Below, one piece after another: positions 50,101 through 59,010 of a DNA stretch of 64,000 nt. The stretch's first letter is position 1. Each line of letters opens with the position of its first letter. The translations under genes and the position numbers were made by a program. The notes beneath the pieces are model-generated. The model saw only the letters and a list, made by a program, of their open reading frames with translations, had not been told where the DNA came from and did not search any database. Source of the stretch: an uncultured delta proteobacterium (lineage in GTDB: Bacteria > Myxococcota_A > Polyangia > Polyangiales > Houyiibacteriaceae); assembly GCA_963699755.1 (NCBI GenBank), contig CAVOVB010000002.1, forward strand, positions 736,001 through 800,000, read 5' to 3'.

Positions 50101-50963
50101 GCGACCTCGCGACGGACAACCTCGGTTTCGTCGAGTGCTGGAACGAGATCCTGACACCGAAGTGGATTCGCTTCCGGCATCTGCTCTCTGGCAACGGGAA
50201 GGTTCACAGCGACATCGCCTATGCAGACTTCGGCATTCGCGAGGGCGACAAGGTGCTCGACATTGGATGCGGATTTGGAGAAACAGCCCTCGAAATCGCG
50301 GAAATCGTGGGCCCCGGCGGTGAAGTGGTCGGCATCGATTGCACCGACGCCTTTCTCGACATCGCGAAGCAGGAGCGCGACGCGGCCGGCGTCGCCAATG
50401 TCCGCTACGAACTGGGCGATGCGCAGATCTGCAACCTTCCCGAAAGCTACTTCGACGTAGTCTACTCGCGCTTTGGCGTGATGTTCTTCCAGAGCGCGGT
50501 GCGGGCCCTTCGAAACGCCAATCGCGCACTCAAGCCGGGGGGCACGCTTTGTTTGATCGTCTGGCGCTCGCTCGCCGACAACCCTTGCTGGGGTGCAGCC
50601 AAGGAGGTCGTGCTGCGCCACCTTCCGCCTCCAGGGGAAGCCGCCTCGACCTGCGGCCCGGGTCCCTTCTCGATGGCGGGCGAAGAAACCGATCGAGCGA
50701 TGCTCGAGGCAGCCGGGTTCTCGAAGGTTGAAGTCTTCAAGCGCATCGATGCCGACGTCTGCGTCGGAAACGACCTCGAACAGGCGATCGACTATCAAAT
50801 CCTGGTCGGCCCCTCCGGGGAGATCGTCCGCGAAGCCGGCGAGGAAGGGCAACGCAAGCTTCCGATGATCCGGCGAGACCTCGCCGAGCTCATGACGCCC
50901 TATTTGCATGACGACGGCGTGTTCATGCCCTCTAGCACCTGGGCGATCATGGCGCGGAAGTAG
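50097..50963 (+). CDS. class I SAM-dependent methyltransferase
   Basis: VLDIGCGFG, SRFGVMFF, LKPGG; GTGA overlap with the ABM gene. Confidence 0.9.
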   Translation: MSDLATDNLGFVECWNEILTPKWIRFRHLLSGNGKVHSDIAYADFGIREGDKVLDIGCGFGETALEIAEIVGPGGEVVGIDCTDAFLDIAKQERDAAGVANVRYELGDAQICNLPESYFDVVYSRFGVMFFQSAVRALRNANRALKPGGTLCLIVWRSLADNPCWGAAKEVVLRHLPPPGEAASTCGPGPFSMAGEETDRAMLEAAGFSKVEVFKRIDADVCVGNDLEQAIDYQILVGPSGEIVREAGEEGQRKLPMIRRDLAELMTPYLHDDGVFMPSSTWAIMARK

Positions 50964-51060: not shown

Positions 51061-51100
51061 TTGACCGGAATAGAACTTGTTCTAAACTAGACTTAGTTTA
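51061..51100 (+). promoter_or_regulatory. P450 promoter with a KstR-type operator (51071-51084) and a second palindrome (51083-51100)
   Basis: TTGACC-16nt-TAAACT; TAGAACTTGTTCTA = TNNAACNNGTTNNA; TAAACTA-GACT-TAGTTTA. Confidence 0.7.
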
Positions 51101-51145
51101 CATATAGTAAAGTTATATCCGCCCCTCGGGTATATGGAGGATCCC

Positions 51146-52348
51146 GTGCAAAACAAGTGTCCAGCGAAGTTCCAGAATCTCGATTTCTGCGCCCCCTCGA
51201 CGCACGACAACCCGTACGAAATGTACGACTACTTCCTCGAGCACGAGCCGCTCTACTTCGATGAGACCAACGGGGTCTGGGAAGTGTTCCGGTACGACGA
51301 CGTCGTGGCGATCGAGCGCGACACCGAGACCTTCATCAATGGCGAAGGCATTCGGCCGAACATCCCGCCGGATCCAGGCATGATCTACCAAGACGGCGAG
51401 CAGCACAACAAGCAGCGCGCGCTCGTGTCTGCAGGGTTCACTCCCCGTCAGATGCGCAAGATGGAAGACCGGGCTCGCGAGATTGTCGTAGAGCTGGTCG
51501 ACAAGATGCTCGAGAAGGACGAGGTCGAGATCGTCGCCGACCTGGCCGGGGCCCTGCCCGCGCGGCTGATCGCCGACATGCTCGACATCCCGGAAGAAAA
51601 GCGAGCCTCCGTGATGACCTGGATCAACCAGATCATCATCGGCGGATGCGGCCCCGAGTACGTCTCAGACGAGGTCAACGAGGCATTCGAGAACTTCTGC
51701 ATGCACCACGAGGAAATGTACCAGGATCGACTGGCCGCTGGCTGTACGGGCAGTGACCTCCTGACCATCTGGATCAACGCGGAGATCAATGGCGAAAAGC
51801 TCGACGAGTCGCAGCTTCTATTCGAGCACGTCTTGCTCAACGTCGGTGGCGCGGAAACGACGCGTAGCGCGATCGCCGGTGGCCTCGAGCGGCTGAGCAA
51901 CGATCAGAAGCAGTACGATGCGCTCTCCGAAGATCCGTCCCTCATTCCCAATGCGGTGGAAGAGATCATCCGCTGGGTCTGCCCGTTCGTGAACATGTAC
52001 CGGACGGCGACGCGCGACTACGAGATGCATGGCAAGGTGATCAAAGAAGGTCAGCAGGTCGGCCTGACCTACCCGGCCGCGAACCGCGACCCGCGCAAGT
52101 TCAACGACCCGCACACCTTCAACATCTTCCGGGATTTCTCGAAGGAAGCGAAGCATCTCTCGTTCGGCCTGGGGCCTCACTTCTGCCTAGGCGCTTCTCT
52201 CGCGCGCCTCGAAGTACGTCTTTCGCTCGAGGAGATGACGCAGCGTGTGAAGAGGATTCGGGTCCCTGAAGGCAAGGAGGTCGAGTACGTGTCCTCTTCG
52301 TTCACGCGCGGCCTCAGCAAGTTCCCCGCGATCCTCGAGCCCCGTTGA
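51146..52348 (+). CDS. cytochrome P450, CYP142/CYP125-like (putative sterol side-chain or branched-lipid terminal oxidase)
   Basis: I-helix GGAETTR, EEIIR, heme FGLGPHFCLG; ERDTETFINGEGIRP recalls mycobacterial CYP142; GTG 51146 has SD GGAGG (alternative ATG 51134). Confidence 0.92.
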   Translation: MQNKCPAKFQNLDFCAPSTHDNPYEMYDYFLEHEPLYFDETNGVWEVFRYDDVVAIERDTETFINGEGIRPNIPPDPGMIYQDGEQHNKQRALVSAGFTPRQMRKMEDRAREIVVELVDKMLEKDEVEIVADLAGALPARLIADMLDIPEEKRASVMTWINQIIIGGCGPEYVSDEVNEAFENFCMHHEEMYQDRLAAGCTGSDLLTIWINAEINGEKLDESQLLFEHVLLNVGGAETTRSAIAGGLERLSNDQKQYDALSEDPSLIPNAVEEIIRWVCPFVNMYRTATRDYEMHGKVIKEGQQVGLTYPAANRDPRKFNDPHTFNIFRDFSKEAKHLSFGLGPHFCLGASLARLEVRLSLEEMTQRVKRIRVPEGKEVEYVSSSFTRGLSKFPAILEPR

Positions 52349-52458
52349 GGAGATTGCCTCGTGGCCTCCGACGCCGCAGAAGAAAAGACGGGAGATGAGC
52401 TAGGCGGCCGCGACGAAGGCGTCAAGGACTAGTGATTGACCAGGCAGAAGGCTGAACC

Positions 52459-52650
52459 ATGAAAATCGTGTACGACAGAGACAAGTGCAAGCTGCACGCG
52501 CAGTGCCGAGGGGCCGCCCCGGAGCTTTTCTCGTTTGCCCCGGACGGCAGCCTCGTGATTCTCGACGAGAACCCGCCAGAGGAGCTCCGTGAGGCGCTTC
52601 AGGATGCGGTCGACGCCTGCCCCGAGCAGGCGCTTTCCATCGAGGACTGA
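52459..52650 (+). CDS. [3Fe-4S] ferredoxin
   Basis: CKLHAQC...AP..F...ACPEQAL (CxxHxxC..CP). Confidence 0.9.
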   Translation: MKIVYDRDKCKLHAQCRGAAPELFSFAPDGSLVILDENPPEELREALQDAVDACPEQALSIED

Positions 52651-57864: not shown

Positions 57865-57894
57865 GCCCCTCGCTCGGCGACGGGGCTACTTTTT
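57864..57894 (+). terminator. intrinsic terminator between convergent genes
   Basis: AGCCCC-TCGC-TCG-GCGA-C-GGGGCT followed by ACTTTTT. Confidence 0.6.
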
Positions 57895-59010
57895 GGGGAG
57901 GCCGAGCGCACGGTCGGCGATCAGATTCAGCAAGAGGTTGTTGAAGACGTAGACGGTCCCTTCGCGGAGCTTGCGCTCGACGTGATACTCCGAGGCGAGG
58001 CCCCAGCCGCCAAAGGTGGTCAGCGCCGCACGCGAAGTCTCCCAGGCCGCTTCCGACGCCAAGACTTTCGCCATCGCCGAGCGCGGCACCGCGTCCTCAC
58101 CACGATCGACGAGCTCGAGAACGTCCCAGCGCATCAGGTCCGCGGCCTCGACTTTGGCGTAGGCTTGCACCAGCGGGTACTGGATGCCCTGGTTGACGCC
58201 GATGAGCTGGTCGAAGGTCTTGCGCGTTTTGGCATAGTCGATGCTGCGATCCAGCAGGAAACGCGCATTGCCGATCGCCTCGGAGGCCGCGAGCACGCGT
58301 CGAATCACGAAGCCTTTCATCAGGCAGGGAAGCCCTTCGCCGACGGGTCCGATCCGCGCGCTGTCCGGCACGCGGAGGTCGTCGATGAACAGGCTTGCGG
58401 TCATGCGGTGGGCGACGAGGTCGATGGGATGCATCTCGACCTGGTCGCCGACGTCATCGAGGTCGAGCAGGAAAAGCGTGGTGCCTTCATCGGCGCGCGC
58501 CAGAAGAATCAGCAAGCGCGTATGCCCCGCAAACGAGATGAGCACCTTGCTCGCGTTGATGAGCCAGCCGTCGCCCTCGCGGCGAGCGCTGCTCGCGAGC
58601 TCGTTCATGTTCGCACCGCTGTCGGGCTCGGTGGCCGCTACGGTTAGGAATCGAATGTCGCCAGACGCGACGCCTGGCAGATACCGCTGTTTTTGCTCTT
58701 CAGTTCCGTGAAGGACGAGGGTGCGGCAGATGGCCATCTGCGCGTTGACCGATGCGGCGTCGCCGCCCGCGCGGTTGATCTCTTCGACTAGCACGGATGC
58801 CACGCGGGCTCCTGCGTCCAGGCCGCCGTAGGCCTCGGGGATGAAGGTGCCGAAGTAGCCCGCCTCGCCGATCGTGTCGAAGAAGGCGCTTGGAAAGGTT
58901 TTGGCCGCGTCCTGTTCGCGCCAGTAATCGGGTCCAAAACGCTGGAGCGCGGGGCCGAGCGCAGCGCGGACTTCATCCAGCGCGAAATCGGAGCTTTGTT
59001 TGGACGCCAT
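57886..59010 (-). CDS. acyl-CoA dehydrogenase family protein
   Basis: TEPDSG, R..F...IG.NQG.Q..L, GGWG...EY.VER. Confidence 0.9.
   Translation of the reverse strand: MASKQSSDFALDEVRAALGPALQRFGPDYWREQDAAKTFPSAFFDTIGEAGYFGTFIPEAYGGLDAGARVASVLVEEINRAGGDAASVNAQMAICRTLVLHGTEEQKQRYLPGVASGDIRFLTVAATEPDSGANMNELASSARREGDGWLINASKVLISFAGHTRLLILLARADEGTTLFLLDLDDVGDQVEMHPIDLVAHRMTASLFIDDLRVPDSARIGPVGEGLPCLMKGFVIRRVLAASEAIGNARFLLDRSIDYAKTRKTFDQLIGVNQGIQYPLVQAYAKVEAADLMRWDVLELVDRGEDAVPRSAMAKVLASEAAWETSRAALTTFGGWGLASEYHVERKLREGTVYVFNNLLLNLIADRALGLPKK

Follow-up and report, generated by a model that had tools for sequence, protein, structure and literature searches.

Among described systems the closest to the one considered here is the KstR regulon, whose operator motif, with a box lying partly over the −10 hexamer, was defined in mycobacteria (Kendall, 2007, PMC1995591). 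The cytochromes P450 CYP125 and CYP142 make the C26 acid of the sterol side chain, which is then ligated to CoA (Doherty, 2025, PMC12100521), and a review names the C26 CoA ester as the inducer of KstR (PMC6678751). The mycobacterial circuit has a second repressor, KstR2, which runs the C/D-ring genes through the box AnCAAGnnCTTGnT (Kendall, 2010, PMC3068626), and ferredoxins with the motif CxxHxxC...CP have been described as a class (PMC6469627). In the literature that we found, KstR is described from Actinobacteria only, and myxobacteria appear as producers of sterols, in the review cited above (PMC6678751) solely as such, and likewise as producers in PMC13277303, where KstR is not mentioned. 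Neither Myxococcota nor Deltaproteobacteria occur in the main text of Bergstrand (2016, PMC4810484) or Holert (2018, PMC5790920), whose tables and charts might list them, nor in that of a preprint (bioRxiv 10.64898/2026.09.18.752586), and those sections of PMC7593942 that were available add nothing on KstR in myxobacteria. A search of main texts outside the subscription journals turned up no paper on KstR in Myxococcota and none connecting SG8-38 with steroids.

We describe here a P450–ferredoxin locus behind a KstR-type box (Table 1) in a 64,000-nucleotide stretch of DNA (the window; C2:736001-800000) from the genome of an uncultured delta proteobacterium (G000; 5.35 Mb, 11 contigs, 9 % contamination), which very probably carries a KstR-type regulon. 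The two hexamers form the sole sigma70-like promoter between positions 50900 and 52800 (spacing 16, 9 of 12 matches, 0.4 expected), and GC content is 30 % over the 60 bases that start at 51061, in a genome of 62.5 % GC. The sequence-only reading had placed the box between the hexamers of a conspicuously AT-rich promoter; the sequences, positions and base composition stand, but the last two bases of TAGAACTTGTTCTA are also the first two of TAAACT, and the box therefore runs into the −10 hexamer instead of standing wholly between the two. A 14-bp palindrome of the KstR-operator pattern TnnAACnnGTTnnA is thus present in promoter position; it scores 19.2 bits against a matrix built, without the window site, from 24 intergenic sites elsewhere in the genome, and with its TT centre it does not fit the pattern TRRAACRYGTTYYA discussed below. 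As TNNAACNNGTTNNA arises at least once in 20 of 100 shuffles of the window, a single match is at chance level and not significant alone, and the case rests therefore on the rest of the genome and on related loci.

Table 1. Features of the P450–ferredoxin locus, numbered from the first base of the window
Feature	Position	Strand	Basis
Predicted −35 hexamer TTGACC	51061-51066	+	Conserved in 11-sequence promoter alignment
KstR-type 14-bp palindrome TAGAACTTGTTCTA, predicted repressor site	51071-51084	.	Motif match, matrix score, conservation
Predicted −10 hexamer TAAACT	51083-51088	+	TA and final T conserved in promoter alignment
Second conserved palindrome AGTTTACA-N3-(A/T)GTAAA(G/C)T, where another regulator is predicted to bind	51095-51113	.	
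Cytochrome P450, CYP142-like, 404 aa, PF00067	51134-52348	+	Fold model, structural alignment, tree
63-aa ferredoxin, Fer4_15, predicted to be of [3Fe-4S] type and to supply the P450 with electrons	52459-52650	+	Motif, domain

Downstream of the box the P450 gene is followed, as had been read from the sequence, by a ferredoxin gene whose product has the motif C-x2-H-x2-C-xn-C-P (C-K-L-H-A-Q-C...C-P) and is predicted to be of the [3Fe-4S] type; the two genes adjoin in only 8 of 30 related loci. Most close homologues of the P450 are 400 aa long, and the real start is thus probably the GTG at 51146. The neighbouring genes are unrelated and of housekeeping kinds, with a methyltransferase upstream and a DNA-3-methyladenine glycosylase and MscS downstream. 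A stand-alone acyl-CoA dehydrogenase gene near the P450 (window 57886-59010) has no box of 13 bits or more, and an Rfam search of the 64-kb window gave no match. Two RNA runs (shares 0.15 and 0.07) represent mostly contigs of relatives and cannot show transcription or habitat.

The box is well conserved at the related loci. A sample of 61 genomes of the family gave 40 matches to the P450. Of the 30 best of these, 27 (26 of 29 without the host genome) have the box within 200 bases upstream of the P450 gene, and at the other three, where it is degenerate (two loci) or lost (one), the second palindrome remains. All five P450 loci from other genera have the box, it keeps its place even where protein identity falls to 55 %, and in four P450 orthologues it reads as the reverse complement of TAGAACAGGTTCTA of Kendall (2007, PMC1995591). 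Beyond the family it was present in only 4 of 14 P450 loci within the upstream DNA fetched, two of them with fewer than 60 bases to inspect.

The second palindrome was overlooked in the sequence-only reading. Its pattern is found at 22 of the 30 loci, with one-base variants at two more, and is missing from the six most distant; within the genus it is conserved even where the KstR box decays. Matches to a matrix of this element precede two further P450 genes of the host, C1:759853 and C1:1275626 (477 and 454 aa), and together with its conservation these predict dual control of the locus, with another regulator involved. A match also precedes a 267-aa gene of no assigned role (C1:223044), and a gene for a TetR_C_33 regulator (C1:760369), which has an AT-rich upstream region and is a candidate for the regulator in question, lies about 500 bases from C1:759853. 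The second palindrome could possibly define a P450-specific regulon.

By sequence the best natural PDB matches of the P450 are CYP142 (3.5e-67), then CYP124 and CYP125. A fold model built on a 122-row alignment (pLDDT 95.7, with 35 for a single-sequence fold) superposes most closely on CYP142 (TM 0.91, rmsd 1.8–2.0 Å, 32 % identity), with somewhat lower scores for CYP124 (TM 0.85–0.89, 32 % identity) and CYP125 (TM 0.84–0.88; 26–27 % identity to extant CYP125 and 36 % to a reconstructed ancestor). Members of a P450 family share at least 40 % identity with a named member, and at 32 % the protein falls outside the CYP142 family; membership of CYP125 is ruled out both by this limit and by a separate clade in the tree. 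In that tree (146-row FastTree, without representatives outside 360–480 aa) the protein belongs to a myxobacterial clade with support 1.0, nested in a 33-row clade (0.943) that includes two proteins whose best PDB match is CYP142, while true CYP125 is placed elsewhere; since the tree holds no mycobacterial CYP142 sequence, the grouping with CYP142 is by proxy. A resemblance to CYP142 had earlier been judged by eye, and it holds for the fold and, through these proxies, for the phylogeny, but does not extend to the family. Many homologues bear the JGI label CYP142A1, which is automatic and is not a test of membership.

At the level of residues, the short B-C loop of CYP142 type (GIRP..P..P.MI), the GGxETT helix and the heme motif align with CYP142, while the I helix has an invariant polar His232, unlike CYP142, and Phe285, as read by eye, replaces the Val that lies beside the heme in CYP142A1. 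The window P450 is the only boxed one among eight P450 matches in the host genome, and no CYP125-like gene was found there with it as query. A paralogue at C1:1237151-1238359 (L150), 80 % identical to the window P450, has neither palindrome nor ferredoxin and may be a duplicate under other control or contamination of the bin.

On balance we favour for the window P450, by analogy, a role as a terminal (C26-type) oxidase of the sterol side chain, because CYP125 and CYP142 yield the C26 acid for ligation to CoA, and the C26 CoA ester is named as the inducer of KstR; His232 and Phe285 are reasons for doubt. The principal alternative accepts the regulon but has the P450 act on methyl-branched or other lipids, in the manner of CYP124, or on another steroid carbon, with the second palindrome as its main control. 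We consider this possible though less likely. The protein is equally identical to CYP124 and CYP142, both residues just named differ from CYP142, the second palindrome persists where the KstR box decays and also precedes two unrelated P450 genes, and fatty-acid genes too belong to KstR regulons (part of PMC6678751); yet TM-score and rmsd are best for CYP142, the B-C loop is of its short type, the tree groups the protein with those whose best PDB match is CYP142 and away from true CYP125, and the host has no other boxed P450 to start on the side chain.

Whichever substrate the P450 may use, the box is not confined to it. The host genome has 48 sites matching TnnAACnnGTTnnA with about 22 expected, a raw count that we reject as evidence because, of 11 permuted control patterns, one has as many as 92 sites. 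What exceeds chance is the position of the boxes and their conservation: 25 of the 48 sites are intergenic by our own gene calls, compared with 10.9 % of the DNA (binomial p 2e-12), and these intergenic sites share the consensus TRRAACRYGTTYYA. Both this consensus and the matrix, which was trained on the intergenic sites, derive from the host genome, so that its 22 matches to TRRAACRYGTTYYA and the matrix's intergenic share are not evidence. At 19 bits or more there are 23 intergenic sites, distributed over 21 loci that include two paralogous pairs (C1:1833862/C7:168843, at 85 %, and C1:1722894/C7:279888, by gene content), and several host sites are letter-identical to EMSA probe cores (TAGAACGTGTTCTA and TGAAACGTGTTCTA) in the available part of Kendall (2007, PMC1995591).

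Annotation of 105 of the 168 genes called around the sites, plus further genes, places steroid and lipid functions behind many of these boxes, which bears out the enrichment of the motif before such genes that the sequence-only reading had called for. KshA_C/Rieske oxygenases occur at three boxed loci (best PDB match KshA, 4e-60), and other boxed genes encode a KshB-like reductase, a PRK07121 flavoprotein, an HsaD-like hydrolase, SCP2, acyl-CoA dehydrogenases, a thiolase and a ChsH2-like/lipid-transfer pair. A boxed KstD-like flavoprotein scores 592 bits, under the model's cut-off of 789, and boxed HsaA-like genes score 411 and 415 bits, under a cut-off of 450; the HsaD and IpdE2 models likewise score below their cut-offs in this genome. 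With HsaA-like there is a boxed hydratase/dehydrogenase/aldolase trio, and the HsaC candidate matches biphenyl dioxygenases (3e-63) better than it does the mycobacterial chain 2zi8 (1e-49). One boxed operon combines an enoyl-CoA hydratase (PRK07938) with a CoA-transferase matching 6CO6/6CON at 1e-102. For the models of boxed genes we presume the names echA20, ipdAB, fadA6, fadD19 and ltp3/4. Remaining boxed targets are generic lipid or redox genes, or genes without an assigned role.

Several further features of these loci may be recorded. A weak box of 14.4 bits precedes genes for an F420-dependent LLM oxidoreductase, an F420:NADP reductase and cofE/cofD/cofC-like products that come immediately after the steroid cluster (L020:2782-6826; C2:278782-282826), and an F420H2 reductase follows the kstD-like gene at another locus (L022), so that the regulon may have a link to F420 synthesis. 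The genome encodes eight KshA_C-domain oxygenases, some with a hemerythrin and a CxxYxxC ferredoxin as neighbours (L016, L025), a number that suggests a wide range of steroid substrates. Divergent promoters are common to boxed steroid genes and a 383-aa Hsp70-like ATPase gene or pdxJ (L009:3503-4654, L017:10375-11115).

The sequence-only reading had noted that the window holds no TetR gene. A search of the genome for a KstR homologue yielded one KstR-like regulator gene, C2:249882-250460, outside the window on the same contig as the P450; both are thus on one contig of a genome with 9 % contamination. Its product is the top match to the KstR HMM at 124 bits, the runner-up among 18 TetR-like matches in the genome having 57, and at 124 bits it lies under the curated cut-off of 280 for NCBIfam NF033703, so that we file it as KstR-like and not as a member of NF033703; none of 301 Myxococcota genomes reaches that cut-off. 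It has TetR_N and TetR_C_20 domains and is the sole PF17925 match of the host (50 bits, over 26.5), its best PDB match is KstR (1e-22), and its Atlas cluster has TetR_N/TetR_C_20 with Myxococcota as the commonest taxon. Identity to actinobacterial KstR is 32–34 % (33.7 % to the annotated kstR of Tsukamurella), and the recognition helix reads VALGTVYKRF compared with VALGTLYRYF in the latter. The gene is the last of a seven-gene run with gaps of −1 to 37 bases (SCP2, an OB-fold protein, two thiolase-like genes, an acyl-CoA synthetase, a kshA-like gene and the regulator), at whose head there is a box, and autoregulation is therefore predicted. The divergence from fadE34 that marks kstR synteny was not found, the gene being co-oriented with and downstream of the kshA-like gene. 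The palindrome is likely to be the operator of this native KstR-type TetR repressor.

The same association extends through the phylum. Among 301 Myxococcota genomes of at least 85 % completeness from 62 families, a repressor homologue (a KstR-model match at E 1e-20 or better, with 10 candidates scored per genome) occurs in 93 genomes and 26 families. At least three TRRAACRYGTTYYA sites are present in 77 of these 93 as against 10 of the 208 genomes without the repressor, while a reversed-pattern control reaches three sites in 1 of 93 and 17 of 208 respectively. When the host's own family is left aside, 60 of 75 genomes with the repressor and 10 of 207 without it reach three sites, the mean box number is higher with the repressor in all 16 families that hold both kinds of genome, and KshA_C is found in 75 of 93 repressor-positive and 18 of 208 repressor-negative genomes. 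The repressor also occurs in 48 of the 49 genomes holding the P450 group of the window. The genomes are kin and the counts therefore not independent, for which reason we attach no p-value to them.

It could be argued that the boxes are read by some other regulator, of TetR or another type, and that the KstR homologue merely travels with steroid genes. The host has its 18 TetR-like matches, 16 of the 93 repressor-positive genomes have fewer than three exact boxes, and five genomes (G095, G120, G327, G274 and G288) have 4–26 boxes and no PF17925 match in a search whose control gave no match either. Four of these five are fragmented assemblies of 180–610 contigs, however, and the equality of the box with the KstR consensus, the near identity of the recognition helices, the place of the KstR-like gene in a boxed operon and the tracking of box number with this gene in 16 of 16 families make such a reader unlikely. 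Box-rich genomes without a KstR-like match may reflect a gap in the assembly, a miss in detection or another reader of the box; we note that G274 (10 contigs, 10 boxes) also has no KshA_C.

The KstR-like repressor would appear to control a further part of the pathway in the host lineage. A KstR-type box lies within 250 bases of the C/D-ring operon in all 30 of the best-scoring loci (16 from the host's own family, 14 spread over eight further families); a coding-region control gives 0 of 30, and the KstR2 box AnCAAGnnCTTGnT is found at none of these 30, at none of 20 distant loci and not at the host operon. In the distant set, which has another gene order, a KstR box occurs in 2 of 20 loci, about 4.8 kb upstream, and at none of the four whose fetched DNA includes a divergent ligase gene; in most of the others the operon may start beyond that DNA, and these 20 are drawn from the 55 remaining matches. 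Control of the C/D-ring operon by KstR throughout the phylum is thus not upheld, and the arrangement may be limited to certain lineages. The two TetR_C_24 proteins of the host that exceed the cut-off are weak matches encoded far from the C/D-ring cluster.

The labels of relatives agree with the host being a myxobacterium, as had been supposed. The closest taxon-bearing homologues of the P450 are assigned to Polyangiales, Deltaproteobacteria or Myxococcota, and those of the repressor at 76–93 % identity are mostly Polyangiales, Myxococcales, Myxococcota or delta-proteobacterial MAGs, with one SG8_38 and a few unclassified. A regulator at 81 % identity in a record titled Coxiellaceae (L060) is also among the myxobacterial matches; that record is probably a mis-binned contig or a mislabel. 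Of the two origins offered by the sequence-only reading, a KstR-like sterol or lipid regulon at work outside Actinobacteria agrees with the single KstR-like regulator, the enrichment of the motif and these relatives, whereas acquisition of the locus with its operator finds no support as a recent event. A recent capture from an actinobacterium, with an operator that may be an orphan in the host, might be suspected since the nearest outside relatives of the P450 include Acidimicrobiales and Nonomuraea proteins at 38–43 % identity, and an ancient transfer, in either direction, is conceivable, the repressor tree having an unresolved base and only three actinobacterial rows. Recent capture is nevertheless very improbable given P450 orthologues in 26 of the 27 other genomes of the genus, the fully supported myxobacterial clade, a dicodon score of the P450 at the 98th percentile of native genes, the presence in the host of a cognate regulator and 22 sister sites, and the grouping of the repressor with its own family at 99/99. 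The circuit is native and recent capture from Actinobacteria is rejected, and we claim no donor, since the base of the repressor tree is open and its outgroup branches are long. A chance origin of the palindrome within an AT-rich promoter, to which the shuffles of the window lend some colour, is refuted by the conservation of the box in relatives, where 26 of 29 related loci keep it even at protein identities as low as 55 %, and has a negligible probability; within 250 bases upstream, such a site occurs at 33 of 4747 genes of the host.

Boxes before steroid and lipid genes, together with a relative of KstR, make it likely that one circuit runs sterol use in many myxobacteria. In the model that we propose, a KstR-like repressor would keep the P450–ferredoxin promoter and about twenty other steroid and lipid promoters shut until a sterol catabolite appears, a repressor dimer at the box blocking RNA polymerase as in mycobacteria. 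By the same analogy the P450, supplied with electrons by the ferredoxin, would oxidize a scavenged sterol at the end of its side chain, converting the terminal methyl group into the acid. The CoA thioester, made by the acyl-CoA synthetase from the repressor's own operon, would then free the repressor and so turn on the side-chain, A/B-ring and, in the host lineage, C/D-ring genes together; a second regulator would act at 51095-51113. Taken as a whole, with the P450 step included, this explanation seems to us probable. The broader proposition, that KstR-type sterol control is old and widespread in Myxococcota, with one repressor in at least nine families running the whole route without KstR2 and a distinct CYP142-like family making the precursor of the inducer, we hold with no more than even confidence.

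If this is so, a phylum known for making sterols joins the major sterol degraders, uncultured myxobacteria are regulated consumers of sterols, an operator code persists in two phyla although the proteins are one-third identical, and the split between KstR and KstR2 is not universal; the one-repressor circuit could be a simpler, ancestral form of the two-repressor mycobacterial one. The predicted regulon also offers genes without an assigned role as candidates for the steroid pathway (e.g. C1:847538 and C2:205251), and the uncharacterized CYP142-like family is a source for biocatalysis.

The mechanism, a TetR repressor acting on a catabolic regulon, is already known in kind, and the P450 family is unnamed. 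With the regulon of KstR (Rv3574/MSMEG_6042) in Mycobacterium, Rhodococcus and Nocardia the host system shares the 14-bp palindrome and a box over the −10 hexamer (in the part of PMC1995591 available), the TetR_C_20 domain and near-identical helix, predicted autoregulation, side-chain and A/B-ring targets and a sterol-type P450; it differs in its Gram-negative host, in a repressor only one-third identical and under the NCBIfam cut-off, in the place of that repressor at the end of an SCP2–thiolase–ligase–kshA operon rather than divergent from fadE34, and in having, at the 30 closest loci, a box before the C/D-ring operon as well. As in the KstR2 regulon the C/D-ring set is clustered (a CoA-transferase pair, an enoyl-CoA hydratase, FadD3, a thiolase and acyl-CoA dehydrogenases), but the host operon has a KstR-type box in place of that of KstR2. 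The P450 resembles the sterol C26 monooxygenases CYP142A1, A2 and A3 in best sequence and fold match, short B-C loop and heme motif, and departs from them in its low identity, the His232 and Phe285 substitutions, an adjacent ferredoxin that is often missing and a second operator. Finally, the host shares with the proteobacterial 9,10-seco pathway of Comamonas type the aerobic ring-cleavage genes in a Gram-negative organism (PMC4810484 and PMC5790920, in part), but where regulation of that pathway is ascribed to TesR/TeiR, the host combines KstR-type control with a predicted sterol side-chain P450.
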